Positions 12,301-52,424 of a stretch of DNA of 64,000 nt are shown here, in pieces. The notes under the pieces are model-generated. The model did not search any database. It was given only the letters and a program-made list of their open reading frames with translations, and had not been told where the DNA came from. How positions within the stretch are numbered: the first letter of the stretch is position 1; every line of letters begins with the position of its first letter. The position numbers and the translations under genes were made by a program. Origin of the DNA: Candidatus Tagabacteria bacterium (GTDB taxonomy: Bacteria > Patescibacteriota > Minisyncoccia > GCA-002779875); assembly GCA_963820595.1 (NCBI GenBank), contig CAWGAO010000007.1, positions 49,071 to 113,070 on the forward strand, in the 5' to 3' direction.

Positions 12301-12375
12301 TCCGCCCATCAGGAATCGAACCTGAAACCTTCTCCTTAAAAGGGAGCTGTCCGCCAACTGGCGGACTATGGGCTT
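12301..12375 (-). tRNA. tRNA-Lys(UUU)-like gene with a mismatched acceptor 5' end
   Basis: Hand-folded: AAGCCCA TA GTCC-GCCAGTTGGC-GGAC A GCTCC-CTTTTAA-GGAGA AGGTT TCAGG-TTCGATT-CCTGA TGGGCGG A. Only 5 of 7 acceptor pairs form. Confidence 0.55.
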
Positions 12376-12380
12376 AAATA

Positions 12381-12453
12381 TCCGCCTGGAAGGACTCGAA
12401 CCTTCAACTTTCTCCTTAAAAGGGAGCTACTCTACCAATTGAGTTACAGGCGG
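12381..12453 (-). tRNA. tRNA-Lys (anticodon UUU)
   Basis: Hand-folded cloverleaf: CCGCCTG TA ACTC-AATTGGTA-GAGT A GCTCC-CTTTTAA-GGAGA AAGTT GAAGG-TTCGAGT-CCTTC CAGGCGG A. Acceptor pairing is 7 of 7. Confidence 0.85.
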
Positions 12454-12707
12454 TTAATTGATATTATGTTTTTAATAAATTCTCTGCCTCTGAAACTTTT
12501 CAACTCTTTTTCCCTTCTCAGCGCGTTGTGCTTATCATTTAATTTTTCTTTATACACGACAATCCATGGTCCTGCATTTTTCCTTGTAAAATGTGCTATA
12601 TTTTGTCGAAAGTTATTATGCTCTGCGCTTCTCCTTTCTAAATTATTTGTCGAACCGATATAGATTTTACCACTACTCTGACTTTTTAGGACATAAACAT
12701 AGTACAT
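12444..12707 (-). CDS. small GIY-YIG nuclease family protein
   Basis: YYVYVLKS...GKIYIGSTNNLERRSAEHN matches the GIY-X10-YIG, R and E core. Its stop codon lies inside tRNA-Lys positions 8-10. Confidence 0.8.
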   Translation of the reverse strand: MYYVYVLKSQSSGKIYIGSTNNLERRSAEHNNFRQNIAHFTRKNAGPWIVVYKEKLNDKHNALRREKELKSFRGREFIKNIISINRL

Positions 12708-24937: not shown

Positions 24938-26365
24938 TTAAAAATTTGGCGATTTGGAATGTTTAAAGATAATCGTCCGTTCCTGGGACCATGTCTGGAT
25001 AATTCCTTTGGACGTTCCGATTATTGCTCCTCCGGGATGCCCGCAAGGCCCGAAATGGTGCCATTCCGGCGCTCCGGTTGTCGGGGCTAATATGCCCGCA
25101 TACGTTGTCCCGTTTACCGTGCGACCGATGACGTAATTAAGAAAAGCGGGGTCGTCGTCCACTACGGCCGCTGTCAGATGGTTTCCCATTCTGTCACACA
25201 GTTTTAGAATGAGGTCAAGGTCTTCTTTCGTCGACCAAGACGTTATTACCTGCACCGGACCGAAAACTTCCGTGGTAACAAGTTTGAAATTCGGCATTAT
25301 TTCCGAAAGAGGCACAAATACGGCCGTGGGCTCAAACGCACCATAACAAAACGGTATTTTATGTCCGGTTAACGGCTTACCGCCGAAAAGTAAATGGGCG
25401 CCATTAATTTTCAGCAACTTCGCGATATGCGCTTGAATCTGTTCGTTTGTCCAAGTAAGCACCGGGCCGATAGATAAATCCGCAAGATTTCTTTCCCGTG
25501 CCAATAAACGTAATTTTCGAACAACAAATTGAACAGATTCTGATTCCCAATTTCCATGAATAAAAAGAATGCTCTGGGCACTGCATTTTTGCCCAGAGGC
25601 CGCGTAAGCATCCTTATCGCAAATTATCGCCACTTCATCGGATAAATAAACATGCGGTCCCAAAATTTTCCAGTCAAAACCGGCGTCTTCTATCTTCACC
25701 CGACCTTCTGTAATTTTCAGAAGTTTTCTGGCAACATCGCTCCCGCCCGTGAACTGGGTAAGTTGAACGATAAACTGCTTATCTTTATTTTTGGCAGAAA
25801 CCAATTTTTCCATCACGGAACCGGAACAATGGATAAGAAGCATATCGTCTTTCGGCATGCCGCAGTGAAGCAGAAGCCGGACAAAAGCTTCTCCGACAAT
25901 TGAAGTGATACTGGCTGTCTTTAAAATGGGCTTGTTGCCCATAAATAAGGCACCCATCAATTGGAGAGCCATGATTTCCAGAGGAAAATTAAAAGGCGTG
26001 ATTATGGCGACCGGACCGAACGGCCAACGGTAATCCCGCGGCTCATCTCCGGAATAATTTCCGGGCGTTGTCTGGCCAATAGCAAGATTGCGGACACCGT
26101 TTCCCGAAAACGTTTCAAGAAAATTGGCTACGCAATCCACTTCGCCCTTGCACTGGTCCCAGCCCTTCGGGAAAACGATATTAATCAATTTTGTGAAAAA
26201 TCGGTTGCCCTCGTCGCTCCTCAAAACTTGCGCCGCGTTGCGACACATATCGCCATACGTCCTGTATCTTTCGGGATTATAATACGGATTATGCAGTCCG
26301 TATTTCGGGCATTCCGCTAGTTCTTCCAGAAAAGGCTTTAGTTCGTTTTCCTGCGTATCAGGCAT
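24938..26365 (-). CDS. aldehyde dehydrogenase family protein (P5C-dehydrogenase-like)
   Basis: FTGGSDVARKL, catalytic-Cys region ASGQKCSAQS, and EVFGPV. Confidence 0.8.
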   Translation of the reverse strand: MPDTQENELKPFLEELAECPKYGLHNPYYNPERYRTYGDMCRNAAQVLRSDEGNRFFTKLINIVFPKGWDQCKGEVDCVANFLETFSGNGVRNLAIGQTTPGNYSGDEPRDYRWPFGPVAIITPFNFPLEIMALQLMGALFMGNKPILKTASITSIVGEAFVRLLLHCGMPKDDMLLIHCSGSVMEKLVSAKNKDKQFIVQLTQFTGGSDVARKLLKITEGRVKIEDAGFDWKILGPHVYLSDEVAIICDKDAYAASGQKCSAQSILFIHGNWESESVQFVVRKLRLLARERNLADLSIGPVLTWTNEQIQAHIAKLLKINGAHLLFGGKPLTGHKIPFCYGAFEPTAVFVPLSEIMPNFKLVTTEVFGPVQVITSWSTKEDLDLILKLCDRMGNHLTAAVVDDDPAFLNYVIGRTVNGTTYAGILAPTTGAPEWHHFGPCGHPGGAIIGTSKGIIQTWSQERTIIFKHSKSPNF

Positions 26366-26542
26366 AAGATAAACGGACTACCATTCAATGGATTGATAAT
26401 ATCTTTAAATTGCTCAAGGCTCTCCATTTCCCGTTAACATAATTTCGCAGAGTAATGCAGGCTTTTCGCAGGAAATTGTATCCGGATTCCAAGGAAAAAT
26501 TTCGTTCGGTTTTAGCATTTTCTTACCTCCCTTCCTTAATGA

Positions 26543-26695
26543 TTAAGCCCGAGTAAAACACAAATTACCGCGAACAAAAAAAACAAACCCGATGCATATA
26601 GCAATGCCTGATGCAATGCCAAGGATAAAACCTAGCCCTTTAAAAAACCAGCTGAAAAACACGGGCTCAAACTCATTCTCAAACTCATTCTTCAT
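26543..26695 (-). CDS. possible 50-aa membrane peptide (not in the ORF track)
   Basis: AAAGGAGG lies 7 nt upstream of the ATG. Product MKNEFENEFEPVFFSWFFKGLGFILGIASGIAICIGFVFFVRGNLCFTRA has one clear TM helix. Confidence 0.4.
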   Translation of the reverse strand: MKNEFENEFEPVFFSWFFKGLGFILGIASGIAICIGFVFFVRGNLCFTRA

Positions 26696-26844
26696 CGTTT
26701 TGCCTCCTTTGGGTTTTCAAAATACACCAAATTCCAATGATATTCCTATCACTTCTTTCTTTTTTGTCAATAGCAATTTGCATTTGCGCAACATAAAAAG
26801 CGTGGCTCATTTTAGCCACGCTTTTAAGTTTACTTTGAGATAAA

Positions 26845-28359
26845 TTAATCTCCGAATTGAATTCCTTGTGCCAACGGCAATTCCTTTGACCAATTAATGG
26901 TGCAAGTTTGCCTTCTCATATATGCTTTCCAGGAGTCGCTTCCGGCTTCGCGGCCACCGCCAGTTTCTTTTTCTCCGCCGAATGCCAATCCTATCTCGGC
27001 GCCGCTTGTGCCGATATTAACGTTGGCGATTCCGCAATCGCTTCCGCGATGACTCAAGAATGTTTCCGCAGTCATCAAATCGTTTGTGAATATTGCAGAA
27101 GAAAGCCCCTGTGACACTTCATTATTCAGTTGAATCGCTTCTTCTATATCTTCTATTCCGAGAAGATATAGAATGGGGGCAAATGTTTCTTCTTTGATGA
27201 TAGCCATATTTTTATGGCCTACTACCAATGTCGGCTCTACAAAAAATCCAGGGCGTACTATTCTCCCGCCGCCGTGAATTATTTGGCCGCCTTGCCTCTT
27301 TATTTCTTCTATCGCCGCCATCATATTTTTAACAGCTTTTTCATTAACCAGCGGCCCCATCAAGGTTTTTGGGTCAAGAGGATCGCCGATTTTAATTTGC
27401 CCATACGCTTTTAGCAAGCGTTGAATTAATTGAGAGATAATTCCTTTTTGCGCCAAGACGCGGCGCGTGGTAGTGCAGCGTTGACCGGCAGTTCCTACGG
27501 CGCCAAAAAGAATCGCGCGGGTTGCCAAATCAAGATTAGCATCATTCATAACGATTACGGCATTATTGCCGCCAAGTTCCAGAAGAACTCTTCCCAGGCG
27601 TTTACTCACCGCTCTGGCAACATGGTAACCCATCTTGCAAGAACCTGTCGCGCTGATTAGCGCGATGCGTTTATCCGAAATCAAGCGTTCGCCAATGGAT
27701 TCTCCTTCGCCGATAACAAGGTTAAAAATATCCCGCAGGTCGTGGCGCCTTAAAACGCGATTGCATATATTTTGAACCGCGATAGCGGTAAGCGGAGTTT
27801 CTGAAGAAGGTTTCCAAATCGTTGTGTTACCGCAAATAGCGGCAATAGCTGCATTCCAAGCCCATACGGCAACAGGAAAATTGAATGCAGTGATAATTCC
27901 CACTATGCCTAAAGAATGCCATTGCTCGTACATGCGATGGGAAGGACGTTCGCTGTGTGTCATAATCCCATAAAGCTGTCTAGAGAGGCCGACCGCATAA
28001 TCGCAAATATCTATCATTTCCTGAACCTCGCCTTCCCCTTCGGCGATAATCTTTCCCATCTCCATGGACACCAATGTGCCAAGTTCCTATTTATAAATTC
28101 GCAGTTCTTCGCCAATTTGGCGGACAATTTCTCCGCGTTTTGGAGCTGGCAGCATTCGCCAGCTTTTAAAAGATTCCTGGGCTGCCAAAACTACTTCTTC
28201 GTAACTTTCAGGAACGGCTTTCAGAACCCGGGCAATTTCTTCGCCAGTTGCCGGATTAATTGAAACTAATTCCTCGCCGACTGGATTTTTAATCCACTCG
28301 CCGCTACAAACGCCAAAATTGGTTTTTTGGATTTTTAACTCTTCCAGAATGCCTTTCAT
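26845..28359 (-). pseudogene. ALDH7/antiquitin-like aldehyde dehydrogenase interrupted by an in-frame TAG (28087-28089)
   Basis: 28087-28359 and 26845-28074 are in the same frame: ...[52 protein letters not shown]. The alignment is continuous with the ALDH7 pattern (IVRQIG..LR....LG.LVSLEMGKI..EG.GEVQE). Confidence 0.8.
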
Positions 28360-29460: not shown

Positions 29461-29967
29461 TTATTGCTCTAAAACCGCTTTTATGCGCCGCACGCCCGCG
29501 CTTGAAGCTTCTTCTTTGATGATTTTAAATTTTCCCAAAACTCCTGTGCGTTCTACGTGAGGTCCTCCGCAAATTTCTTTCGAGAAGTCGCCGATAGAGT
29601 AAACTTTCACCTTATCTCCGTATTTTTGCTCGAAAACTCCCGTCGCGCCCTGTTTCTTCGCTTCCTCCAAACTCATTTCCTCCATTTTCACGGGCAAATC
29701 TTCTTTGATTTTTTGGTTTACTAAATTTTCTGTCTGTTTTACCTGTTCCGGTGTCATTTTTTCGGGATGAGAAAAATCAAATCTCATCCGTTCGGTCGTG
29801 ATATTCGAACCTTTCTGAGTAACATGTCCGCCTAAAATTTTTCGCAAAGCCGCCAGCAATAAATGAGTTGCGGTGTGATATTTTGTCACCATTTCCGAAT
29901 GGTCTGCCAAGCCGGATTTGAAAATGCCGGCGCGCTGCAGTGCGGGAAAGCTCTTGGTGTTGTTCAA
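29461..29967 (-). CDS. AlaX-S-like / AlaRS editing-core protein (TTG start)
   Basis: HTATHLLLAALRKILGGHVTQKGS...RFDFSH...CGGPHV...GVRRIKAV are the AlaRS second-additional-domain motifs. 214 nt of non-coding sequence, including its own AAGGAGGG, separates it from the alaS fragments. Confidence 0.75.
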   Translation of the reverse strand: MNNTKSFPALQRAGIFKSGLADHSEMVTKYHTATHLLLAALRKILGGHVTQKGSNITTERMRFDFSHPEKMTPEQVKQTENLVNQKIKEDLPVKMEEMSLEEAKKQGATGVFEQKYGDKVKVYSIGDFSKEICGGPHVERTGVLGKFKIIKEEASSAGVRRIKAVLEQ

Positions 29968-30181
29968 ATGCCTTTTGAAATTCTACTTTATCATTTTCGA
30001 ATTTTAGTAATTATCCCTCCTTTCTTCTTGCTCTATTTTTTATCTCTTCAATACTCATTTCTATGGGAAATCCATAGAGTTTGAGATAAAAATATCAAAC
30101 GCTGCCTAATCGCTCTTCCGTCCAAAATCACGAGTTAATTTCTTGGACTTGCAAATTTTTTATTTCACTTTTCAAGGTCGT

Positions 30182-31382
30182 TTAATCCCTTTCCAAAGCT
30201 TTTAAATTTTCCTCTCTCACTAATTGTTCTTCGATAAAATTTTTATGTTCTTTTAGTTCAGGATAATCATTTTTATAAATATCAATAACAACTTTGGCGA
30301 TTTTGAAAGTAAAAATATCGTTTATTCCTATTTGTTTTCCGTATCTGACGCTACGGCGGATAAGCCGGCTCAAAACATAGCCGCGTTCAACGTTGGACGG
30401 TTCAACTCCTTCGGCCAAAATAAACGCTAGCGGCTTTGATATGGTCGCTGATTATCCTAATCGCTCTTTCTTTTTCGGCTTTTTTTTCGAGTCCGGCAAT
30501 CTGCTTATTTATGGCATGGCCGGGGTCGTAAAGCGCGTCAAAAGAATCGGTCGGCTCGGCGGAAATTCCGGCGATTTTTCTGATTTCTGAAACAATCGGT
30601 TTGAATAATTCCGTTTCGTAAACGCTGTTCTGCCCGTTTAAAACGGCGATTATCCTCTCCAAGCCCATTCCGGTATCCACGTTTTTTTGTTTCAGGGGTT
30701 CGAATTCTCCGGCGGAGTTTTTGTTGTACTGCATGAAAACATCGTTCCAAAATTCAAGCCACAGAGGATTAGCGGCATCGAAAATTTCCGGAGGTTTTTC
30801 CGACTCCCCCATCCAATAAAACATTTCGGTATCAGGACCGCACGGTCCTGTTTCTCCCGCCGGGCCCCACCAGTTATTTTCTTTGGGGAGTTTGGCGATT
30901 CTTTTTTCGGAAACCCCCAAACTTTTCCATATCTCAAAAGCTTCCTTGTCGAAAGGCGCATCGTTGTCGCCGGCAAAAACTGAAACTGCGATCCGGTTTT
31001 TATCTAAAGCCAGCCATTTTTTCGAGGTTAAAAATTCCCAGCTCCATTCTATCGTTTCTTTTTTCCAATAACCTGCCCCGATTCCATCAGGGCTGGCGGG
31101 GTCTCCCAAAGACCAATTGCCCAGCATTTCAAGAAAAGTCACGTGCCAATCGTCGCCCACCTCGTCTATATCGCTCGTTCTGATGCATTTTTGAACGTCG
31201 GCCAGGCGTTTTCCGGCCGGATGTTTCTCTCCCAAAAGATACGGCACCAAAGGATGCATTCCGGCAGTGGTAAAAAGCACTGTCGGGTCGTGTTCGGGAA
31301 TCAAAGGCGCGCCGGGGATAATCACATGTCCTTTCGATTTAAAAAATTCCAGATATTTTTTCTTTAACTCGATTGAATTCAT
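30182..31382 (-). pseudogene. alaS: alanyl-tRNA synthetase catalytic and tRNA-recognition part, frameshifted at about 30410
   Basis: N-terminal FFKSKGHVIIPGAPLIP...FTTAGM. Fragment 1 ends ...RIISDHIKAASVYFGRRS* while the +1 frame gives FILAEGVEPSNVERGYVLSRLIRR, the conserved AlaRS continuation. Confidence 0.8.
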
Positions 31383-31392
31383 AATTTGATTA

Positions 31393-32127
31393 TTACTTTA
31401 CGCATTTTATCGCCATAAATGGTGGCTTACTTAAATATTGTTTCCAAAAATCGCGCCCAAATTTCTTAAATCCTTCTTTGGAAACAATCGGCTTGTACCA
31501 TTTTATAACCTTGAAACCCGCTTGCCGCAAGGCCTTGTTATAAGTTTCTTTCTTCCAAAAATAATTTTTAAAACTGCAGACCTCACTCCCATTCTTATAA
31601 AGAGAAATCATCAATATATTACCTTCTTTTAAAGGTTTTTTAGCTTTTACGCTAAGATCGTATTTTTTATCAAATTTTAATGGAATCAAGGGATTATTAT
31701 TTATAGCCACGAACTTTCCTCCTTTTTTAAGATTCTTGTAAATATTTTTGCATATGGCTGTAAGGCCTTTTCCAGTTTTTGCGAAGTCAAGCAAATGTGT
31801 AGTTATAACTAAGTCAAATTGTCTTATTTTGGAAAGGTTTTTGACATCACAAACGAAAAATTTTATTCCAAGCGGTTTCGTCTTTTCTTCCTGCCGGGCC
31901 AAGGCTATCATTTTTGAAGAAACATCCACTCCTAAAACTTTTGCCGCGCCTTGTTGTTTAAGAAACCGCGAATAAAAACCTTCTCCGCAAGCTAATACTA
32001 AAACTTTACTCCCTTTAATTTTTTTAAAAAGACGAAGAAAAGTAGGTATGAAGCTGTAATGACGAAGGATGTTATCCGTAGCACCCTTTTTATATTGCTG
32101 GGCAATTTTGTTAAATTCAACTTGCAT
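31393..32127 (-). CDS. class I SAM-dependent methyltransferase
   Basis: Motif I VLVLACGEGFYS and post-I VLGVDVSSKMI. Confidence 0.8.
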   Translation of the reverse strand: MQVEFNKIAQQYKKGATDNILRHYSFIPTFLRLFKKIKGSKVLVLACGEGFYSRFLKQQGAAKVLGVDVSSKMIALARQEEKTKPLGIKFFVCDVKNLSKIRQFDLVITTHLLDFAKTGKGLTAICKNIYKNLKKGGKFVAINNNPLIPLKFDKKYDLSVKAKKPLKEGNILMISLYKNGSEVCSFKNYFWKKETYNKALRQAGFKVIKWYKPIVSKEGFKKFGRDFWKQYLSKPPFMAIKCVK

Positions 32128-32275
32128 ATTATCTAATAAGTAAGTATATACTACGTTTAATTACGTCGTTCGAACGTAATTAAAATAAATTTTCATTACG
32201 TTCTCTCTAGTAATTATAGAAAAATCGGCTGTTTTGGCAATAAAAAAAACGCCCGGATTAAAGCCGGGCGTTCCA

Positions 32276-32713
32276 TTATTTTTTCTTATGACATTCTTTG
32301 CAGGCTGTCGGGCCAGTTGGCTTGCCTTCTTTTTTACGGTCTTCATGGCAACCCTTACAACTTTTATGGAATGCATCTTTTTTAGAAGGAGTATTTCCTT
32401 CCGCCTTCTTTTTATGGCAATCCCTGCAGAGATCTCCACTTTTTTGATTTTTGTCTTTGTCCCACGTATGGTGACACTTGGAATCATAACAATCAATTTT
32501 GTATTCGACATTGTGCTTTTTATGGGTGAATGTCACATCGCCATAAGAACATTCAAACGTAATCACGTCTTTGGTAATACCGTTTCCAGACGTATCAGCT
32601 TGCGCTACTCCTTGAGTAAAAGGTATTCTTGATAAGATAATGGCGCCGCTCCAAAAGCAAAGAAGTACGACCACAATAATTAATTCTGAAATTTCAATTT
32701 CTTTTCTTCTCAT
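32276..32713 (-). CDS. tetraheme cytochrome c (c3/c7 family-like), membrane-anchored or secreted
   Basis: Four heme-binding sites: CYDSKCH (CX4CH), CRDCH, CKGCH and CKECH. His-rich spacing resembles Geobacter PpcA / Desulfovibrio c3 (GDVTFTHKKH...). N-terminal hydrophobic helix. Confidence 0.75.
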   Translation of the reverse strand: MRRKEIEISELIIVVVLLCFWSGAIILSRIPFTQGVAQADTSGNGITKDVITFECSYGDVTFTHKKHNVEYKIDCYDSKCHHTWDKDKNQKSGDLCRDCHKKKAEGNTPSKKDAFHKSCKGCHEDRKKEGKPTGPTACKECHKKK

Positions 32714-32726
32714 TTTTTCTCCTTTT

Positions 32727-33110
32727 TTATTCTTCCGGTTTTTTTACCAAAGTCGCGGCGAATGTTATTCTGCAAATCGTTTTTGACACTTTCCGCAATA
32801 TCGTAATTTTTATCCTGTCGCCGGGCCTGTTCCTGGTTATCAATTTGGCCACGTCGGCTTGAGTGATTGCCGTAACGCCATTTATGGAAACTATCCTGTC
32901 GCCGGCTGTCAACCCCGCATTTTCCGCGGGAGAATTCGGAAGAACCTCCGTGATAATCAGACAATTGTCGTACCCGATGCCAAGAAAACCTTTGGGCCCG
33001 AATGATCTGTCAAGATTGTCGCCCACCAGATACACGAACGAAGCGATGCCAATGAACACAACGAAACAAAACGCGTAAATGGCCAAATTCCTGCGAGTCG
33101 GTTTTTTCAT
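32727..33110 (-). CDS. membrane-anchored PDZ-domain protein
   Basis: TM helix followed by GIGYDNCLIITEVLPNSPAENAGLTAGDRIVSINGV, the PDZ carboxylate-binding loop and core. Confidence 0.75.
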   Translation of the reverse strand: MKKPTRRNLAIYAFCFVVFIGIASFVYLVGDNLDRSFGPKGFLGIGYDNCLIITEVLPNSPAENAGLTAGDRIVSINGVTAITQADVAKLITRNRPGDRIKITILRKVSKTICRITFAATLVKKPEE

Positions 33111-33228
33111 CTTCTCTCCTTATTTATTTTCAAAGATTTATATGCCGTATTCTGAATTAGATTCTATCAAAACGGAAAATGGCCGTCAAATAATAATCCC
33201 TCCGCCGAGCATTTCCTGCCCTGTACTT

Positions 33229-34266
33229 TTATGATTTCCTGGAAGCAAAGATAAATTTGAAATATTTATTAGTGCAGGGGTTACCGTTCGCGACATTAAA
33301 ACTTAGCTTCTTCAAATCTATTATCACGCTAGCCAATGTTGCCGATGATTCAAGGTCGTCATTTTTCGGATGCCGACAAATACTCATCGGTTTTTTATAG
33401 TGGTCGGATAAAACATTCTTAACGTTTTCAAAAGACGGCTTTCCCAACTTCTTCATCAATACATCGGCTCTTTTGACCTTAAACGCGGAGATGGGGTTGA
33501 AATCTTGAGGAATTTTTTTGAAAGGATTTAAAAGGTAATGCACGGCATGTGCATAACTGTCTTCCAGCGGTTTTTCCGATAATCTCTTGTGATAAGTTTC
33601 CAAAGTAATGCCTCTGTTTTCCTTTTGCGAAAATATTAAAAAGTGCAAACCGGAGAAATTAGGAAACTTACGAAGTATTTTTCGCGATTGCCCGATAGAT
33701 CGCGATTCCAGTAAAGCCCTGCCGATGAAGCTTCGGGCGAATCCGGCTTTGTGCATTTTCTTGGGATATACCGTATCCAAAGCGTGCACCATGCGAAAAG
33801 AATTGATGGATATGCTGTCTCCGCAAAGCAAGCCCGGGTAATTTAAAGTGATAAAAGATATTTTTTTATTCAGACCCGCTTCCACGAGGAGAAGTTTGCC
33901 GTAATTGGCGGCAAATTCTTCTTCGTTATGCCCGATAAACGCATTTCGGCTGTTTTTCCAGAAAATTGTTGTGCATTTGCCTTCAAAATTTTTAAAACCA
34001 CATTCATCTTCAAAGCAGTTATAGGCGAATAAATCGACAAAAGGAATATTCGCGCCGTCAGCCATACCTTTCAATTCGGCGACAAAATCAGGAAAAAATT
34101 TTTCATGCCGAGGCAAAGCTTTTTTGGCGGCCTTCAGAAGTTTGGTTTTTAAAATCAGCTTATTGAAAAGATAGTTTATTTCCTTTTTCTGCTTTCTGCC
34201 GATAACTTTTCCGATATCGTAATTCCTGCCCTTTATTTCAAGAAATCTTATTTTACTTAATTTCAT
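33229..34266 (-). CDS. Ntn-hydrolase, peptidase C45 / acyl-CoA:6-APA acyltransferase-like (tentative)
   Basis: FEGKCTTIFW (candidate nucleophile Cys) followed by IGHNEE; about 345 aa. Confidence 0.5.
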   Translation of the reverse strand: MKLSKIRFLEIKGRNYDIGKVIGRKQKKEINYLFNKLILKTKLLKAAKKALPRHEKFFPDFVAELKGMADGANIPFVDLFAYNCFEDECGFKNFEGKCTTIFWKNSRNAFIGHNEEEFAANYGKLLLVEAGLNKKISFITLNYPGLLCGDSISINSFRMVHALDTVYPKKMHKAGFARSFIGRALLESRSIGQSRKILRKFPNFSGLHFLIFSQKENRGITLETYHKRLSEKPLEDSYAHAVHYLLNPFKKIPQDFNPISAFKVKRADVLMKKLGKPSFENVKNVLSDHYKKPMSICRHPKNDDLESSATLASVIIDLKKLSFNVANGNPCTNKYFKFIFASRKS

Positions 34267-34351
34267 AAAAATATTTTAAATTTTTTATTCAGGACTACGG
34301 TTGATACTATTTATTTTAGTATATAGAAAAAAACCGTGTTGGCAATCAGTT

Positions 34352-34399
34352 AAAACAAAAAACCCTGGCCGATTAAACTGGTCAGGGTTGTTTTTGTTT
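34352..34399. terminator. bidirectional intrinsic terminator
   Basis: AAAACAAAAAA-CCCTGGCC-gattaaact-GGTCAGGG-TTGTTTTTGTTT. Confidence 0.75.
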
Positions 34400-34407
34400 A
34401 GTTTTAT

Positions 34408-34647
34408 TCATTTCAAGAACGAAATATAAAAACCGATAATAAGAACGTCAACAACAAGAGAAGCCACAAACATCAGCGCTCCAAATAAAATGGCTATTAT
34501 GCCGCGGGAAATAAAATTTGAAAAGAACCAATCCCCTTTTGTTTTGGAGCTAACCCAGGCATAACATATTCCTGCGCCAGTAAAAATTATTGAGATAATA
34601 TCACAAATTATCTCGACCCCTAAAGTCATCTGTATTCCATTCAGCAT
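34408..34647 (-). CDS. small two/three-TM membrane protein
   Basis: 79-aa hydrophobic ORF with AAAAGGAGGAAG upstream of the ATG. Confidence 0.5.
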   Translation of the reverse strand: MLNGIQMTLGVEIICDIISIIFTGAGICYAWVSSKTKGDWFFSNFISRGIIAILFGALMFVASLVVDVLIIGFYISFLK

Positions 34648-34680
34648 TTTTCTTCCTCCTTTTCGGTTCGGTTTGAATTA

Positions 34681-34708
34681 TCGCTTTTCTTTTCAAAGAA
34701 AAGCGATA
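34681..34708 (-). terminator. perfect 12-bp-arm palindrome downstream of mnmA
   Basis: ATCGCTTTTCTT-ttca-AAGAAAAGCGAT. Confidence 0.55.
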
Positions 34709-34754
34709 CGATTTAAACCAATTATATCATATCCGCATTTCTTGTCAAGCCTTG

Positions 34755-35972
34755 TCAAATAATAATGCCGCCACCGAGCATTTCGGCGCCACGATATAAA
34801 ACTAAAGATTGGCCGGAAGTTACGGCTCGCTGGGGTTTTTTAAAATGAATGGTTGCGGAATCTCCGCTTAATGACACAATTTTGCATTTTTGGAGCGGCT
34901 GCCGGTATCTGATGCGCGCCGCATATTCCTCTTTTAAATTTGGGGCGCCATTAATCCAGTTTGCGCCGCCGATAACTACCTCCTTTTTATAAAATTCTTT
35001 TTCTTCTTTTTCTTTGGCAACAACCAAAACGTTATTTTTCAAATCTTTGGCAACAATGTAATAAGGACCGCCGGGAATATTGAGGCCGTGGCGCTGGCCA
35101 ATCGTGTAAAAATGCGCGCCGTCGTGCTTGCCGATTGTTTTTCCGTCCGCTGCACGGATTTCTCCTTCTTTCTTCGGCAGTATGTTTCTTAGAAATAATG
35201 AAAAATTAATATCTCCCACAAAACACAAACCCTGGCTGTCTTTTTTCTCGGCGGTCGGAAGTCCAAATTTTCTCGCGAGCTTTCGCACTTCGGGTTTTTT
35301 ATAATCCCCTATCGGAAACAAACAGTATTTCAATTGTTCCTGCGTCAAAGTCCAAAGAAAATAACTCTGGTCCTTATTTTTATCTACGGCAATTTTGAGA
35401 TTTGAGATTTGAGATTTGAGATTGCGACGTAGTCGCACATAATGGCCGGTGGCGATATAATCAGCGCCCATTTTAAGAGCATTTTCCAAAAACAAACCGA
35501 ATTTGATGTATTTATTGCACATCACGTCCGGATTGGGAGTTCGTCCTGCCGCGTATTCTTTCTTCATGTATTCCACTACTTTTTCTTCATAATCTTTTGA
35601 AAAATCAAAAGTCAAAAAAGGAATGCCGAGCTTGGCGGCTGCTCTCACCGCGTCCCGCCTTTCTTCTTTCCAGCCGCAAACCATTCCTTCGGGCTGCCAA
35701 CCTTTGGCAAAAGCCCCGACAATATCAAATCCCCTAAACCCCTTCGGGGTCGGGCGTCCTGTGAGTTTTTCAAACTCACGAGGATTAGCCTGCTTTTTGA
35801 GCAAGGCTGCGGCGACTGAACTGTCTACGCCGCCGGACATAGCTACGAATACTTTTTGGCGTTTTATTTTTTTCACAGATTTCACTTCAAATATTGATTC
35901 TTTTTCTGGACGTGTTCCGCGAAAGTTTTGCTGTAGTAAATATTGCCGCTTTTGTCCGACAGATAGTACCAA
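34755..35972 (-). CDS. mnmA: tRNA 2-thiouridine(34) synthase MnmA, with a 20-aa palindrome-encoded insert and a heptamer repeat
   Basis: PP-loop AMSGGVDSSVAA, ATGHY and KDQSYFL. The extra ANPREFEKLTGRPTPKGFRG sits right after the PP-loop helix. Confidence 0.9.
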   Translation of the reverse strand: MVLSVGQKRQYLLQQNFRGTRPEKESIFEVKSVKKIKRQKVFVAMSGGVDSSVAAALLKKQANPREFEKLTGRPTPKGFRGFDIVGAFAKGWQPEGMVCGWKEERRDAVRAAAKLGIPFLTFDFSKDYEEKVVEYMKKEYAAGRTPNPDVMCNKYIKFGLFLENALKMGADYIATGHYVRLRRNLKSQISNLKIAVDKNKDQSYFLWTLTQEQLKYCLFPIGDYKKPEVRKLARKFGLPTAEKKDSQGLCFVGDINFSLFLRNILPKKEGEIRAADGKTIGKHDGAHFYTIGQRHGLNIPGGPYYIVAKDLKNNVLVVAKEKEEKEFYKKEVVIGGANWINGAPNLKEEYAARIRYRQPLQKCKIVSLSGDSATIHFKKPQRAVTSGQSLVLYRGAEMLGGGIII

Positions 35973-40523: not shown

Positions 40524-41740
40524 TTAAGATAATTTAATAATTTTCTTTAACGACAGTGCGAAATATTCGGCTTCGGCTTCGGTGTTATAAAAATAAACAG
40601 AGGCGCGGACCGAATCTTTGATTCCGCGGCTTATTGTACCATGAATGAACGCAATGCCGTCCCGAACGAACCATTATATGATAAGTTTTATCGAGCAGAA
40701 GAGAAATTTCATGAGAAAACATTTGCGGATGGTAGAAATTAATAATACCGCTCCGCTCTTCGGGATTTTCCGGGCCGATGATTTTCAGTTGCGGGAAATT
40801 CTTTACGCCATCGGTGATAATTCGATTCAGTTTTACTTCTTGCGATTTTATATTCTCAAACCCAATATTTTTGACGATATTTCACGGCCTCTCCCAAACC
40901 AATGATTCCCGCGAAATCAATGAGGCCGGCTTCAAAGCGTTCCGGCCCGTTCAGAAATTTATGATTTTCATAAGTTGAATCTTCCACTGTTCCCCCGCCG
41001 ACAATAAACGGACGTAATTTTTCCATCAGGTTTTTTTTGACATAAAGCACGCCCGTGCCTGTCGGTCCGAGTATTTTGTGTCCGGAAAACGCCAAAAAAT
41101 CGCAATCCAAATCATGAACGTCGATTTTCTGATGTCCTGCCGCTTGCGCCGCATCAACCAAAACCGCAGAACCGTTCTGATGAGCCGATTCTACGATTTC
41201 TTTTATCGGATTGGTGACGCCGTCGAGATTCGAAGTAAAAACAACGGAAATTAATTTTACTTTTGGAGAAAGTTTCTTTTTTAATTCATCTAATGTCGAA
41301 AGTATTGTCGGATTTTGATTTTATGATGCCTAGCTTGATTCCTTTTTCTTCTCCAAAATCTGCCACGGAATAAGATTCGAATTGTGCTCTTTATCGGAAA
41401 TTAAAACCTCATCGCCTTTTTCCAGCGCAAAACTTCTGGCGATCAAGTTGATGCCCTCCGTCGTATTGCGCGTGAAAATGATTTCTTCCGGTTTGGCGTT
41501 TATGAAATCGGCGACAATTTTTCTGGCTTCGGCTATTTTCCGGTTAACCATTTCCCCCATCGTGTGGTTGCTTCTTCCGCCGCAGGCCGGATATTCGCGG
41601 TAATAGTTGTCCATCGCCTCGATGACCGGCTCCGGTTTTAGCGTCATACAGGCATTATCGAAATAAACCGGTCCGCCAGCTGGCGGAGTAAATATCGGAA
41701 AATCCTTTCTGATTTTATCAACGTCAAAAATTTTACTCAT
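40524..41740 (-). pseudogene. class V aminotransferase / cysteine desulfurase (SufS/NifS-like) broken by at least 3 frameshifts
   Basis: N-terminal fragment FDNACMTLKPEPVIEAM...FTRNTTEGINL; middle fragment FLAFSGHKILGPTGTGVLYV. The C-terminus is read in two further frames (...MVRSGRHCVHSW / TISRGIKDSVRASVYFYNTEAEAE). Confidence 0.8.
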
Positions 41741-42820: not shown

Positions 42821-43915
42821 ATGATGGATTTAGGTTATTTTCTTATTATAAAGCCAGTTGGTACTCTTTGCAATCTCAGATGCAGTTATTGTTATTACAA
42901 ACATCTGGATCAGGGCGCAAAAACGCTGATGTCTTATGAGACATTAGAGAAGATTATTGAAAGAGCATTGTTGAGTAACGCGAAAACAGTTCATTTCTGC
43001 TGGCACGGCGGAGAGCCGACCTTAAGAGGGCTCGATTTTTACCGAAAGGCAATGGAATTTCAGCAATCGAAAAATGTTCAACAAAAAACAATTATTAATC
43101 TTATCCAGACAAACGGTGTCCTTATTAATAAGAATTGGATAGATTTTTTCCGAAAGGAAAAATTTGATGTCGGCATTAGCCTCGACGGTACAAAAGAACT
43201 GCATGACAGCAACCGCAAATTAAGCAATGGAAAAGGATTTTTTGATAGAACTTTCAATGCTTTACAGTTGCTTCAAAAAGTAAATATTCCCCATGGCGTT
43301 ATACACACCGTTACGAAAAATACTCTAAAATTAGCCGCAGAAAGCGCACAGTTTTTTATCAATTCGGGATTAAAAAAATGGTCGTATAATGAATATTTTG
43401 AACTCGATCAAAACGGAAAGAAAACACCTAATTCTTTATCTGGAAAGGAATGGACGAATTTTTTAATCTCTGTTTTCAAAACTTGGCTGAATAGCGGAAA
43501 GGATGAAATAAAAATTCGCGAAATACAGAATTTAATTTTTTGGTCATTAGGCTTCAAGCCAAATAACTGCACCCATAGTGGAAATTGTCATAAATTTCTG
43601 ACTATAAATTACAATGGTGACATCTATCCCTGCGAGAGATTGATGGATTACGGCCAGTTTGGAAATATTAAAGATATTGCCATCAGCGAAATTGAAAATC
43701 TTCCCTCATATCAGAAACTAAAAACTGCTGTTTCTGACTATCCCGAGAAATGCAGAACCTGCAGATTTTTTCAAAATTGCCATAATGGCTGCACAAGCCA
43801 TAGAATTAGTGGTTTAAATGGTAAATATTATTTCTGCGAATCACGAAAATATCTTTTCAGATATTTCGCTGAAATGATAAAATCCGCCAAAGAAAGCTCG
43901 AAAGGAGGTGAATAA
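42821..43915 (+). CDS. radical SAM enzyme with C-terminal SPASM domain, paralog of 9073-10227
   Basis: CNLRCSYC and WHGGEPTL. SPASM: CHKFLTINYNGDIYPC, CRTCRFFQNCHNGC (CX2CX5CX3C), YYFC. Colinear with the 9073 enzyme throughout. Confidence 0.9.
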   Translation: MMDLGYFLIIKPVGTLCNLRCSYCYYKHLDQGAKTLMSYETLEKIIERALLSNAKTVHFCWHGGEPTLRGLDFYRKAMEFQQSKNVQQKTIINLIQTNGVLINKNWIDFFRKEKFDVGISLDGTKELHDSNRKLSNGKGFFDRTFNALQLLQKVNIPHGVIHTVTKNTLKLAAESAQFFINSGLKKWSYNEYFELDQNGKKTPNSLSGKEWTNFLISVFKTWLNSGKDEIKIREIQNLIFWSLGFKPNNCTHSGNCHKFLTINYNGDIYPCERLMDYGQFGNIKDIAISEIENLPSYQKLKTAVSDYPEKCRTCRFFQNCHNGCTSHRISGLNGKYYFCESRKYLFRYFAEMIKSAKESSKGGE

Positions 43916-46714: not shown

Positions 46715-47880
46715 CTAAATTTTCCCGTCCTTTATTTTCTTTCTGATATTCTCTACGAAAGTATTGAAAAAGTAAAGATTATGGAAAGTAAGAAGTTTTA
46801 AGGCCGTAATTTCTTTGGCGCGGAAAAGATGAGCGATGTAATTTCGCCGGTAGTTTTGACAGACAAAACAGTCGCATTTTTTATCAAGCGGATTTTTGTC
46901 CGCGAGAAACTTAGATTTCGCCATATCAAGCTTGCCTGCCGAAGTAAAAGCGACGCCGTGCCGGGCATAGTGAGTCGGCACAATACAATCAAAAGTATCA
47001 ACGCCCTTTTTAATAACTTCGGGAATGTCTTCCAGATAGCCAATACCCAAAAGATGCCTCGGTTTTTTTTCCGGCAATTTCGGATTAACCCAGCCGAGCA
47101 TTTTAAGCATCGCTTTTCTGTCATCGCCCACGTCTCCTCCGATTCCGAAACCGTCGAACGGCAATTTGCCGATAAATTTCGCACTCTTCAATTCTTAAAT
47201 CTTTGAATTTTCCGCCCTGAATAATTCCATAAAGCGCCTGCCTACCGGCAGGCAGGCCTGTCTTTGTATTTTTCGCATCCAAACAAATTTTTGCCCAGCG
47301 ATGCGTTCTTTCCAGAGATTTTTTTACGTATTTATAATCGGCAACTGGCGGAGTGCATTCGTCAAAAGCAAACATTATATCCGCTCCCAAATCTTCCTGA
47401 ATTTTAATCGATTCTTTCGGCCCGATAAAAAATTGCTTGCCGTCGAGATAAGAAGTGAAAAAGCACCCTTGGTCGGTAATTTTTAACTGCTTGGGCTGAT
47501 GGCCGCATTTAACGACTATCCTGATGCTGCTGTTTGCCTTTTAAAGTTTTTTCTATCCCGTAATCTTTTCCGAAGCCCAAACTGAAAACCTGAAACCCGC
47601 CGGAGTCGGTCATAAGCGGTTTTTGCCAATTCATAAATTTATGAAGTCCGCCGGCCGATTTTATTATTTTTTCGCCCGGCTTCAGGTGTAAGTGATACGT
47701 ATTACAGATAAGAAGCTGGCACTTCGCGTTAAACGCTTCTTCGCTGGTCAGGGTTTTGACAACCGCTTGCGTCGCCACAGGCACCAAAGACGGCGTTTCT
47801 ATTATGCCGTGTTCCGTTTCTATAATTCCCAATCTCGCCTTGCTTTTTTTCGATTTTTTGAGAATTTTGAACTTAATCAT
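46715..47880 (-). pseudogene. tgt: queuine tRNA-ribosyltransferase broken by at least 2 frameshifts, with an in-frame CCTGCC palindrome
   Basis: Fragments: ...LMTDSGGFQVFSL; ...LGADIMFAFDECTP...YGIIQGG; ...FDGFGIGG...PRHLLGIGYLEDI...CDCFVCQNY. Junctions lie near 47510-47530 and 47190. Confidence 0.85.
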
Positions 47881-48672: not shown

Positions 48673-49890
48673 TGCCGATAATTTACGCTGGCGACGGCTC
48701 GTTTTTAGGGCGAAACGATGCGCCTCTTCTCTTACTTTCAGGAGAACGCCTTTCTCGGTTTGAATCAGCTCTTTCAGCGAAGATTTTACTTTCGGCTGAA
48801 AGACTAATTTGTCGCCGCCGAATTTTGAAATGCCTACGATAGGAATGGATATGTTCAGTTTTTTAAAAGTTTTTGATATGAAAGATATCTGCGGTTTGCC
48901 GCCATCAATCATTATCAAGTCGGGATAATGCCATTCCGGATGGCGGAATCTGCGCGTTATCATTTCTTCCAACGCGCGCAAATCGTCGTTGGCCGGCGCC
49001 TCTTTGATATTGAACAAGCGATACTGGCTATTGTCGGCTTTGCCATCAATAAATACCACCATTGAACCGACGGTTTCTTTGCCCGTTAAATGAGAAATAT
49101 CATATCCCTCAATTCTGTTGAATTTAGCGGTTCCTTGCGATAAATCTTCCCGTGAAATCAAGGCAACGTCCTGTATGTGCTTCAAACTTTGAATCGCCAT
49201 CTGATTTTCGTTTTTCAGCTTTTTAAAAAGTTTCTTTTTTTCGCCTCTTAAAAATAAAATCAAGTTATCAATATTTTTTTGGTATTCTTCCTTACTGATT
49301 TTATTCACGCACGCGCCCGGACACAACCCGATTTGATAATCAAAACATGGCTTGCCGGAATTTTTTGCAGGCTTGCCTGCCGCTAGGCAGGTGCTGTACG
49401 GAAAAATTTTTCTGATGATGCGCAAGCCGTTTTTAATCGCGGACAAGCTCTGATAAGGCCCGAAAACTCTATCTTGAGGAAATTTTTCCAGCTCCCTTTG
49501 TCTTACTATAAACGGCCGGGGAAAACCTGCAGTGAGCGAAGTCGAACCGTCGGCTCTCGGGAACTTGTCCCGAGCTTGTCGAGGGATAACAATATAAATG
49601 AATGAGCGATTATCCTTTTCCTTAACGTTATATTTCGGCCAATATTTTTTAATGAGATTAGCTTCCAGAACAAGCGCTTCCAGCACGCTATCGGTTTTGT
49701 AATATTTTATTTTTACCGCCGAATCAATCATCTCCGCCAAACGCGGGTCCTGTTGTTTTTGAAAATAACTGATAACCCTCCTCCGCAAAGAAGTGGCTTT
49801 GCCGACATATAGCGGTTTTTTGTTTTTATTTAAAAATAAATAAACTCCCGGGCTTAGTGGTAATTTTTTAACTTGTTCCAATAAATTCAT
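48667..49890 (-). CDS. uvrC: excinuclease ABC subunit C, short form (GIY-YIG, Cys region and endonuclease domain; no C-terminal HhH)
   Basis: [24 protein letters not shown] (GIY-YIG), [14 protein letters not shown] and IEGYDISH. Two palindrome-encoded inserts are present. Confidence 0.88.
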
Positions 49891-52424
49891 AAATATTTCT
49901 TTAAATACGCACCTGTATAAGAATGTTTATTATGGGCCACGTCTTCGGGCGTGCCTTTGGCAACCACTTTGCCGCCTTTTTCTCCGCCTTCCGGCCCCAA
50001 ATCAATAACATAATCCGCGCATTTAATTACATGCATATTGTGCTCGATGATTATTACCGTATTTCCCTTCTCCACTAATTTATTCAAAACTTCAAGCAAG
50101 CATTTTAACGTCGTGATAGTGCAAACCTACAGTTGGCTCGTCCAGCAAATACAAAACCCGCTTTCCCAAAGGATGAGTCAACTCTCGGCCAAGTTTTACT
50201 CTCTGCGCTTCTCCGCCTGATAAAGTCGTGGCCGACTGTCCCAACTGCAAATATCCCAAACCGACTTCTTTCAAAACTTTCAGTTTATCGGCAATCGTGT
50301 AAATATCTTTGAAAAAATGTTAGCCGCTTCGTCTATGGTTAAATTCAAAACATCGCTGATGTTTTTCTTTTTGTAGTGCACCTGCAAGGTTTCGCGGTTG
50401 AATCTTTTGCCCTGGCAAACTTCGCATTTTACCAGAACCGGCGGCAGAAAATGCATTTCAATCAGATTAAATCCTGCGCCTTCGCACGCCTCGCACCTTC
50501 CGCCGCCTTTTGCGGACGACACGTTAAAAGAAAAACGCGAAGCTTTGTATCCCTTTTCCCGCGCTTCGGGAAGCTCGGCAAAAAAATCGCGAATCGGGGT
50601 AAAAATGCCGGTATAAGTGGCCGGGTTCGAGCGCGGAGTGCGGCCAATCGGCGACTGGTCAACGACAATCGCTTTATCAATATATTCAATGCCAAAAAGT
50701 TTTGATACTTTTTCAAGATTGCTTTCCATGCGCGCTTTTACTGTGGCCTATATTCGTATATAAAACATCATAAAGCAAACTTGATTTTCCGCTTCCGGAA
50801 ACGCCGGTCAAACAAATGAATTTCCGCAAAGGAATCGCCACATCAATATTTTTTAAATTATTGGCGCGGGCTCCGATAATTTTTATTTCTTCGGTTGTTT
50901 TTGTTCTCCGATATTTCGGCAAAGAAATTTCCAAATCTCCTTTGAGATATTTCAAAGTCAGGGAATTTTCGTATTTTGCGGCATGTTTCAAAAGTTCGTC
51001 TATCGGACCGTTGGCAACGACTTCCCCGCCATGCTTGCCCGCTAAAGGCCCTAAATCAAGCAAGATGGTCGGACGAACGGATTGTTTTTTCGTCGTGCTC
51101 GACGATGATAACCGTATTATTCTGGTCTCTCAAAGCCTTTAAAGTTTTTATCAGTCTGTCGCTGTCTCTTTCGTGAAGACCGATTGTCGGCTCGTCTAAA
51201 ACATAAAGGGTTCCGGATAATCCCGAGCCGATTTGCGAAGCCAAACGAATTCTTTGCGCTTCGCCGCCCGAGAGAGTTTCCGCTTCGCTGATTCAAAGTC
51301 AGATAATCAAGCCCCACTTCCAATAAAAATCCCAACCGATTTATTATTTCTTTCAAAAGATTTTCGGCAATGAGTTTATGGCGCGCATTCAATTTATCTT
51401 CATAGTTGGTAAAGAATTCGTAAGCGTCGTCGATTGTGAGTGAGCTTGCTTCCCAGATGTTTTTTTTGTTTATTCTCACCGAAAGGGCTTCGGGCTTTAA
51501 CCTTTTTCCTTCGCAGTCCGGACAAATCGTATCCAGAAACAAATCGATTTTTCCCAAACCGTGGCAGGTCGGGCAGGCGCCGTGCGGGCTGTTGAAAGAA
51601 AAAAGTCGGGGCTCCACTTCAGGAAACGCGAAATTATCGTCCGGACAGGTACGCAAGCATGAAAGCAAAAGTTCCACTGGTTCTGATGCATTTAGAGTGG
51701 TCTGCTTTAGAAAACAACTTTAACCAAGCCTTGACTGTAATGAATCGCATTTTCAACAGCCTCAAACAAACGGCTTTCGTCATCCAGCATCACTCTATCC
51801 ATCACGATATCAATGTCGTGTTCTTTATAACGCGGCATTGTTATTTTTTCATGAAGAGACTTCAGTTCGCCGTCAATTCGCGCCTGGCCGAATCCTTCCG
51901 ATAAGAAAATCGTATAAAAGCTGATAATATTCTCCTTTTCTGCCGCGGACCACGGGCGCAAGAACGAGCGCATGCTTTTCCTTTAATTCCCTGCCTCGGC
52001 CGATAATAATATCCACCATTTCTTCAATGGAAAGTTTTTCTATTTTGGTTCCGCAAACGGGACAAAAAACTTCGCCCAAGCGAGCGTATAAAACGCGCAG
52101 ATAATCGTAAATTTCCGTCAGAGTGCCGACGATGGAGCGCGGATTGTGGGATAAAGCGCGCTGGTCAATGGCGATTGCCGGCGAAAGGCCCGTGATTTCA
52201 TCAACGTCGGGCCGGTCCATCTGCCCCAAAAATTGCCGCGCGTAAGGCGACAAAGATTCGATGTATCGCCGCTGGCCTTCGGCAAAAATAGTGTCAAAAG
52301 CCAAAGACGATTTCCCGCTTCCGGAAACCCCGCTGAACACTATCAGCTTATTTTTCGGCAATTCCACAGAAATATTTTTGAGATTGTGTACTCTAGCTCC
52401 TTTTATTATTATTTTATCTTTCAT
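49887..52424 (-). pseudogene. uvrA: excinuclease ABC subunit A fragmented into at least 8 reading-frame pieces
   Basis: Track ORFs 51873-52424, 51707-51973, 51117-51677, 51056-51244, 50713-51063, 50280-50729, 50092-50274 and 49887-50099 give consecutive UvrA segments ([23 protein letters not shown] ... LSGGEAQR ... [11 protein letters not shown] ... [10 protein letters not shown] ... [11 protein letters not shown] ... [10 protein letters not shown]). Confidence 0.9.

Follow-up and report, generated by a model that had tools for sequence, protein, structure and literature searches.

The locus studied here raises the question of what a multiheme cytochrome gene is doing in a genome that, judging from the one marker available for placement, very likely belongs to the Patescibacteria, a group also known as the Candidate Phyla Radiation (CPR) and reported as ancestrally lacking electron-transport chains (PMC7507113). 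The gene lies at positions 32276–32713 on the minus strand of a 64-kb stretch of contig CAWGAO010000007.1, hereafter “the window”. We analyzed the window together with about 130 kb of related DNA from 13 loci, giving about 194 kb in all, probably less than 10% of one genome. An earlier note, made from the letters of the window alone, had described the product as a c3/c7-type cytochrome with an N-terminal anchor. Our analysis supports a c3-type tetraheme class III cytochrome, a new lineage-restricted member of a well-known family. As a protein it is unremarkable; what makes it interesting is its setting, a lone and strongly conserved c3 in a CPR lineage, with a clade-specific CX4CH heme site and a recurrent PDZ partner.

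Multiheme cytochromes have been described in one CPR genome, that of the Parcubacterium ‘Candidatus Parcunitrobacter nitroensis’, where they form part of a complete respiratory chain and NapC/NrfH-type, HAO-type and bc-complex-associated cytochromes share one scaffold (PMC5220378). The cytochrome described here is instead a single small soluble c3, alone among housekeeping genes. In the open-access literature searched, we found no paper linking the Candidate Phyla Radiation or Patescibacteria to cytochrome c3. Among open-access papers on Patescibacteria and multiheme cytochromes, cytochrome c biogenesis or extracellular electron transfer, none attributes these to Patescibacteria, apart from the exception above (PMC5220378).

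Evidence for a c3-type tetraheme cytochrome

The product matches the Pfam family Cytochrom_CIII (PF02085) with 49.6 bits against a gathering threshold of 22.9 (E 5.5e-13), residues 57–142 aligning to positions 18–101 of the 101-position profile, so that the c3 part of the earlier c3/c7 assignment is upheld by the profile check. Of the solved structures, the acidic cytochrome c3 of Desulfovibrio africanus (PDB: 3cao; E 3.4e-13, about 34% identity) matches the sequence best, and the alignment to it covers all eight heme cysteines and all eight histidines. With 3cao and the Desulfomicrobium cytochromes c3 (2cy3 and 1w7o) the protein shares an exported domain of about 100 residues, four heme sites and eight histidines in the same order. 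The first heme site, in contrast, is CX4CH here and CXXCH in the solved structures 3cao and 2cy3. The genomic setting also differs from that of the sulfate reducers: here we find a reduced, Patescibacteria-like genome, and in the DNA surveyed we saw no hydrogenase, no Tmc, Hmc or Qrc complex and no sulfate-reduction genes.

The c7 part of the assignment did not hold. Both c7 models score below their cut-offs (PF14522, 20.2 against 24.8; NF043011, 50.6 against 120), and the product has four motifs, including heme II. It is not a c7 because heme II (CRDCH) and its distal histidine are retained, whereas the c7 proteins (PpcA–E of Geobacter sulfurreducens and the Desulfuromonas c7) lack heme II. 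They appear to share its fold family and resemble the product in the GDV.F.HK.H start and in the heme III/IV half. Other subtypes were rejected as well. The type II cytochrome c3 TmcA (NF045722) reaches 63.2 bits against a cut-off of 114, with no TmcBCD-like neighbours in the nine genomic contexts described below; HmcA (51 bits against 400) and the nine-heme cytochrome (13 bits against 640) are both at odds with a single c3 domain. As for the partners of a type I c3, no hydrogenase or formate dehydrogenase gene was found in the window and the related DNA surveyed.

Structure prediction points to the same family. An AlphaFold model of the mature domain, built from 129 homologues and without hemes, has a predicted local distance difference test score (pLDDT) of 63.5 and a predicted TM-score (pTM) of 0.52. 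Its top 25 fold matches in the PDB are all class III cytochromes, at TM-scores of only about 0.5, and include PpcA–E as well as HmcA domains, Desulfomicrobium c3 and 3cao. Of the tetraheme c3 structures, 3cao comes closest in fold (TMq 0.54), while the c7 protein PpcB (3bxu) gives the top Foldseek E-value (2.7e-4). A full-length model built from 34 sequences has a pLDDT of 56, and its fold search gave no meaningful match.

The features of the gene, with the predicted heme sites and ligands, are as follows.

32276–32713, minus strand: coding sequence for a tetraheme cytochrome c of class III, 145 aa with the signal peptide, stop codon at 32276–32278; PF02085 match, ten orthologues at 59–100% identity
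32597–32713, minus strand: predicted signal peptide, residues 1–39 (MRRKE..., ending A37-Q38-A39, then D40); sequence reading and hydropathy calculation
32513–32524, minus strand: H64-K-K-H67, two predicted N-terminal distal ligands; invariant in 129 family members, aligned to FNHDEH of 3cao
32468–32491, minus strand: heme I site C75-Y-D-S-K-C80-H81 (CX4CH), then the predicted distal ligand H82; CX4CH in 10/10 clade members
32414–32428, minus strand: heme II site C96-R-D-C99-H100; invariant in the clade, aligned to CSDCH of 3cao
32366–32368, minus strand: predicted distal ligand H116; invariant in 129/129 aligned sequences, aligned to AYH of 3cao
32345–32359, minus strand: heme III site C119-K-G-C122-H123; cysteines and histidine invariant
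32288–32302, minus strand: heme IV site C138-K-E-C141-H142, then an invariant C-terminal KKK; invariant in orthologue and family alignments

The reading frame is intact, and the four heme-c sites that had been noted in the 145-aa product (CYDSKCH, CRDCH, CKGCH and CKECH) read exactly as quoted. On the plus strand of 32276–32713 there is no open reading frame (ORF) in the corresponding frame. The product reads MRRKEIEISELIIVVVLLCFWSGAIILSRIPFTQGVAQA up to the predicted signal cleavage point and continues as DTSGNG...CKECHKKK; the segment GDVTFTHKKH corresponds to residues 58–67. The mature protein would comprise 106 residues (about 12 kDa without heme, isoelectric point 8.9, 22 lysines), and the heme IV region at its C-terminus is rich in lysine (RKKEGKP...CKECHKKK).

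There are eight histidines in total, at positions 64, 67, 81, 82, 100, 116, 123 and 142. Four would be proximal and four distal ligands, which is the exact requirement of a bis-histidine tetraheme protein. The distal set (H64, H67, H82 and H116) aligns with the distal histidines of 3cao and 2cy3 and is invariant or nearly so in 129 sequences; by homology with known c3 structures we take H64 and H67 to serve hemes I and III, H82 heme II and H116 heme IV. Across the ten orthologues all eight heme cysteines are invariant, as are seven of the eight histidines; H82 is present in nine and displaced by one position in the tenth (P0010). The protein thus carries the predicted bis-histidine ligation set in canonical order. 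No other ORF with at least two heme-c motifs was found in the window or in the full 194 kb of window and related DNA.

At the N-terminus, where the earlier note had placed an anchor, the sequence looks more like a cleavable Sec signal peptide. It has a positively charged start and, by hydropathy calculation, a hydrophobic core at residues 12–26; in 10/10 orthologues the cleavage region has alanine at −1, position −3 is taken by a residue that is small or aliphatic, and the invariant D40 follows directly.

A small sub-family confined to one lineage

Single-sequence and profile searches of 5.8 billion proteins agree on ten clusters that form a clade with the window protein, at 59–100% identity and 231–269 bits. 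Below these the scores fall sharply to 141 bits, to a large group of 122-aa proteins that, where named, come from Syntrophaceae/Thermodesulfobacteriota. No cytochrome of the clade type is present in 185,579 species-representative genomes, where the relatives are almost all from Thermodesulfobacteriota and reach at most 48% identity. A metagenome scan for CK[ED]CHKK likewise gave identities of at most 48% among the matches listed. The CX4CH spacing at the first heme site is found in 10/10 clade members and in 0/119 of the other best family members. The sub-family is very small and confined to one Patescibacteria (CPR)-like lineage.

The nearest relatives are the 122-aa proteins, which are uncharacterized and annotated as “cytochrome c3 family protein” in metagenome-assembled genomes of Syntrophaceae/Thermodesulfobacteriota (for example P0022), with 45–64% identity, or about 61% over the mature domain. 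They have in common with the window cytochrome four heme sites, eight histidines and a KPTGP...C..CH module at the C-terminus, and their isoelectric point is about 9.3. They differ in having CXXCH at heme I and in lacking the N-terminal extension DTSGxGIT of the clade. In a neighbour-joining tree of 46 taxa, the clade split was recovered in 57/60 and that of the 122-aa group in 58/60. The two are sisters in the sampled tree, and the topology by itself therefore gives no direction of transfer.

The placement of the host comes from RpoA. The window protein has matches of 100% and 95% on metagenome contigs only, and its best named relatives, at 61–64% identity, are labelled “Patescibacteria group bacterium” and “Candidatus Terrybacteria” (Parcubacteria).

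A conserved gene in a variable slot

The cytochrome gene lies between two housekeeping genes that bound what we refer to as the slot.

34755–35972, minus strand: mnmA (tRNA 2-thiouridylase), upstream boundary of the slot; tblastn with MnmA of the related locus L001 (70% identity) and synteny
29461–31382, minus strand: alaS, downstream boundary, broken by two frameshifts; read in frames −3, −1 and −2, with Pfam matches to the pieces

In every context recovered, nine distinct arrangements, the cytochrome gene occupies the mnmA–alaS slot. The contexts (L001–L004, L005/L006, L141/L142, L143/L144, L145, L148 and L149) were drawn from independent ENA, JGI, NCBI and Logan assemblies of different samples, and finding the same slot in all of them excludes a chimeric contig. 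The rest of the slot is hypervariable, with PvlArgDC in L148, YjbQ in L141 and a pilin-like gene plus a 245-aa gene in L149. In the window it holds an AAT-family protein (33229–34266), a 79-aa membrane protein (34408–34647) and a methyltransferase (31393–32127); none of these has a counterpart in any related locus, and we treat them as cargo unrelated to the cytochrome. Two relatives at 77–80% RpoA identity have only PvlArgDC in the slot and no cytochrome.

The mnmA–alaS interval (31383–34754 in the window; also in L001, L005, L059, L060, L141–L145, L148 and L149) is thus an accessory-gene hot spot, in which all genes are lineage-specific except the cytochrome and PDZ genes.

Selection and age of the gene

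The mature domain evolves under strong purifying selection, with ratios of non-synonymous to synonymous substitution (dN/dS) of 0.009–0.075 across six orthologues and synonymous sites at or near saturation. Between the window and its closest relative, L145, the cytochrome genes differ by 30 synonymous and 2 non-synonymous changes. These values rule out a decaying gene, and the pseudogene-like evolution that the earlier note had considered is not borne out.

Composition was compared with that of the flanks. The synonymous-codon score of the cytochrome gene falls inside the range of the window genes, while its GC content (0.38, against 0.43 ± 0.03 for window genes) and its GC content at third codon positions (GC3; 0.34 against 0.43 ± 0.04, 2.2 standard deviations below) are somewhat lower. 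The corresponding Syntrophaceae c3 locus has a GC content of 0.47. Divergence from L149, measured as the proportion of non-synonymous differences (pN), is 0.16 for the cytochrome, 0.22 for mnmA, 0.20 for alaS and 0.20 for the PDZ gene. Gene and chromosome have thus diverged together, from a time earlier than the deepest split in the clade.

These data bear on the suggestion that the gene was horizontally acquired. A recent transfer is ruled out, since the codon score is host-like, the GC content is lower than, not nearer to, that of Thermodesulfobacteriota, and pN equals that of the neighbours. An old transfer remains plausible: the tiny clade, the absence of the gene in close relatives and a family dominated by Thermodesulfobacteriota make an old acquisition from that direction the most economical account.

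The same data weigh on a more radical explanation, in which the gene is an artefact, either a Thermodesulfobacteriota gene co-assembled through chimerism or mis-binning or a decaying remnant of a recent transfer. The window assembly is indeed error-prone, with alaS, tgt, a class-V aminotransferase and an aldehyde dehydrogenase split by frameshifts, and the GC3 of the cytochrome gene is low, as given above. Against this stand the recurrence of the gene in the same slot in nine arrangements from independent assemblies and sources, a GC content that is host-like and below that of the Syntrophaceae locus, a conserved promoter, an ORF that is intact despite the noisy assembly, and the strong purifying selection. 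We regard an artefact as effectively refuted.

The signal peptide behaves differently from the rest of the protein, being nearly free to evolve whereas the mature part hardly changes. A single residue separates the mature cytochromes of the window and L145, yet their signal peptides (32597–32713 and L145 1578–1694) are unrelated in sequence; that of the window resembles the one in L001, and that of L145 the one in L143. The pattern points to recombination, or else to very fast turnover, at the 5′ end of the gene.

Expression signals and the PDZ protein

The cytochrome gene is framed by the following signals, with a PDZ gene directly upstream.

32719–32723, minus strand: Shine–Dalgarno sequence AGGAG, 5 nt 5′ of the cytochrome ATG; sequence reading
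32246–32274, minus strand: intrinsic terminator with an 11-bp stem (7 G–C pairs) and a T-run, starting 2 nt past the stop codon; equivalent hairpin in L145 and L001
33161–33189, minus strand: promoter-like TTGACG-17-TAGAAT with an extended −10 TG, followed by the leader TCTTTGAAAA and a ribosome-binding site, 5′ of the PDZ gene
32727–33110, minus strand: PDZ protein, 127 aa, one transmembrane helix at the N-terminus and then one PDZ domain (PDZ_6, 1.4e-14); 13 nt from its stop codon to the cytochrome ATG

By alignment, the promoter and leader of the window are homologous to the region directly 5′ of the cytochrome gene in L001, L145, L005 and L141, and to the region 5′ of the PDZ gene in L149, making six genomes in all. 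The terminator of the window and that of L145 (2008–2036) have identical stems, and their loops are reverse complements of each other (CTTTAAT and ATTAAAG), as if the core had been inverted.

In the window the PDZ gene is located between this conserved promoter and leader and the cytochrome gene, co-oriented and separated from the latter by the 13-nt gap, in agreement with the earlier description of a cytochrome beside a PDZ membrane protein. L149 has a PDZ orthologue in the same place, of the same length and 66% identical without gaps, although its cytochrome, on the other side of the deepest split in the clade, is only 62% identical to that of the window. The same pair in L149 rules out the PDZ gene as an insertion specific to the window. 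Over its full length the PDZ architecture was found in only two of 1.84 billion representative proteins, P0254 (64%) and P0263 (54%), and the PDZ pair has a dN/dS of about 0.26. The PDZ–c3 operon is therefore real and probably old. The link is not universal, because the PDZ gene is present in only 2/9 contexts, in both under the same promoter. That the PDZ protein may act as a tether or chaperone for the cytochrome is an attractive idea.

The PDZ gene also has a GC3 of 0.555, about 2.7 standard deviations above the window genes, and its proportion of synonymous differences from L149 (pS), 0.52, is below that of mnmA (0.77), alaS (0.66) and the cytochrome (0.90). Codon constraint is one possible cause; another is that clade members exchanged the PDZ gene more recently.

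Heme attachment and proposed role

About 65 ORFs of the window were surveyed with Pfam and NCBIfam, and none of them belongs to a respiratory complex, encodes a quinone enzyme or a hydrogenase, or serves heme synthesis or cytochrome c maturation. This survey and tblastn searches for ResB and CcsA agree with the earlier observation that nothing else in the window relates to respiration or cytochrome c maturation. The cytoplasmic redox enzymes present are two aldehyde dehydrogenases, an NADPH-FMN reductase and two radical-SAM/SPASM proteins. Tblastn with one ResB and nine CcsA-like proteins from other loci, a scan for the WWD motif and Pfam surveys detected no maturation gene in the window or the 13 related loci.

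The picture differs in the nearest relatives outside the CPR. The 122-aa c3 is encoded directly 5′ of ResB, a component of system II heme attachment, in organisms that have an outer membrane and a much larger genome, whereas the clade gene lacks such ResB/CcsA neighbours. In Syntrophaceae-type loci the 122-aa c3 gene is followed by ResB within 200 nt; overall, a ResB-like gene lies at most 3 kb downstream of c3 in 13 of the non-CPR loci analyzed, eight of which also have a CcsA-like gene within 5 kb. This c3–ResB(–CcsA) linkage (L146/L147, 8001–9940; L061 and L069–L088) may mean that, in those organisms, heme attachment has the c3 as a primary substrate or is regulated by it.

The contrast with the clade gene opens the way to a non-redox explanation, in which this lineage has no heme-attachment system and the apo-protein is kept for some other purpose, for example as a metal- or surface-binding peptide rich in cysteine, histidine and lysine. 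It draws on the lack of any maturation or heme-synthesis gene in the 194 kb of clade DNA, on the ResB neighbours of the nearest non-CPR homologues and on the cofactor auxotrophy typical of CPR genomes (PMC5220378). Such a role, however, does not predict constraint that falls exactly on the heme-binding pattern, where all eight cysteines are invariant, the eight histidines vary only by the shift in P0010 and dN/dS is about 0.01–0.07. Moreover, the DNA examined is only a small part of any one genome, and another Parcubacterium encodes several c-type cytochromes (PMC5220378). We consider a non-heme role improbable, and a genuine, expressed, heme-binding c3 likely.

For its function, we lean modestly towards a Sec-exported protein, cleaved after A39, that carries four bis-histidine hemes and works on the outer side of the membrane, where it shuttles or buffers electrons at low potential and, in some members, is kept in place by the PDZ protein. 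In this model, the c3 gene was most probably acquired by an ancestor of the lineage and was of the type that Syntrophaceae-like Thermodesulfobacteriota keep beside ResB. The gene would then have been inherited vertically in the mnmA–alaS accessory slot, with its own conserved promoter and terminator. After export by Sec and cleavage behind A39, hemes would be attached at C75/C80, C96/C99, C119/C122 and C138/C141, with H81, H100, H123 and H142 as proximal and H64, H67, H82 and H116 as distal ligands. The loaded cytochrome would act as a low-potential carrier or buffer outside the cytoplasmic membrane, where in some members the co-transcribed PDZ protein may hold it, and would pass electrons between an envelope or host-side donor and an acceptor.

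Several observations weigh against this carrier model. In general, Patescibacteria are described as devoid of electron-transport chains (PMC7507113), and the taxonomic placement comes from the single marker RpoA, at 61–64% identity to named genomes. The 64-kb window and the 130 kb of related DNA yielded no gene for ResB, CcsA, Ccm or heme synthesis, and neither a hydrogenase or formate dehydrogenase nor a quinone-linked complex or a further c-type cytochrome; covering probably less than 10% of one genome, this negative does not amount to genome-wide absence, yet it lends no positive support to heme loading or to a partner. If the cell has a single membrane, an untethered soluble protein of 12 kDa would be lost, and the PDZ gene is absent in 7/9 contexts. 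Confidence in the structure models is only moderate. Finally, the clade is sister to the 122-aa group and not nested in it, so that the direction of transfer rests on distribution.

A related but doubtful alternative is that the c3 is an electron sink, a terminal reductase that conserves no energy and whose electron acceptors are oxygen, metals (Fe(III), Cr(VI), U(VI)) or further oxidants outside the cell. Its purpose would be to protect a strict anaerobe or to dispose of fermentative reducing power, and not to carry electrons between defined partners. Cytochromes c3 of sulfate reducers reduce metals directly, which speaks for such a role. The gene is also monocistronic in most members, with no adjoining partner gene, and the aldehyde-oxidizing enzymes conserved 3′ of alaS, either a tungsten-type aldehyde ferredoxin oxidoreductase (AFOR) with a ferredoxin or an aldehyde dehydrogenase, would make reducing equivalents in need of a sink. 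However, no electron route across the membrane was seen, and these enzymes are linked to the cytochrome gene only via alaS and belong to separate transcription units. The present data do not separate the sink from the carrier model.

What stands out is a single c3 long kept under very strong selection with conserved expression signals, in surroundings that show no other respiratory gene. If the cytochrome is heme-loaded, some CPR bacteria would carry out redox reactions beyond the cytoplasm, perhaps where they meet a host, and such bacteria must then obtain and attach heme. A bolder and rather improbable reading is that CPR episymbionts without a respiratory chain or heme pathway of their own use an exported c3, derived from the ResB-linked c3 of Syntrophia-like Thermodesulfobacteriota and PDZ-anchored in some, to connect to a host of that kind through its extracellular or periplasmic electron network, draining its reducing power or dumping their own; heme would be scavenged and attached by an unrecognized maturation system. 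The CX4CH first site and the recurrent PDZ partner offer concrete handles for experiments.

Other features of the window

The housekeeping genes of the window include infA-rpsM-rpsK-rpsD-rpoA-rplQ, grpE-dnaK-dnaJ, aspS, scpAB, uvrBC, mnmA, alaS, tgt and others, and 10 unannotated ORFs have no NCBIfam or Pfam match. Several housekeeping genes, a number of them essential, are split by frameshifts into two to six ORFs each: alaS (29461–31382), tgt (46715–47880), the class-V aminotransferase (40856–41740), the aldehyde dehydrogenase (26845–28359) and apparent pieces of uvrA (49887–52424), the last labelled from motif reading, as its pieces gave no Pfam match. In the closest relative L145, a “contig_” record, alaS is split too. 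Indel errors of a long-read assembly are the most likely cause, rather than gene decay.

The two radical-SAM/SPASM enzymes are of the peptide-maturase type (9073–10227 and 42821–43915, both on the plus strand), lie on the strand opposite to most genes and adjoin unannotated ORFs. An ORF resembling GIY-YIG/T5orf172 nucleases (12444–12707) overlaps the 5′ end of a tRNA-Lys gene (12381–12453), next to which a second tRNA-like Rfam match (12301–12375, 38 bits) was not called by ARAGORN. Just downstream of alaS, relatives encode a small ferredoxin and the AFOR (L001, 12588–14680; L141, 3552–5644; L143, 3054–5485), whereas the window (24938–28359) and L145 have NAD(P)-type aldehyde dehydrogenases instead, which looks like a swap between two routes of aldehyde oxidation.

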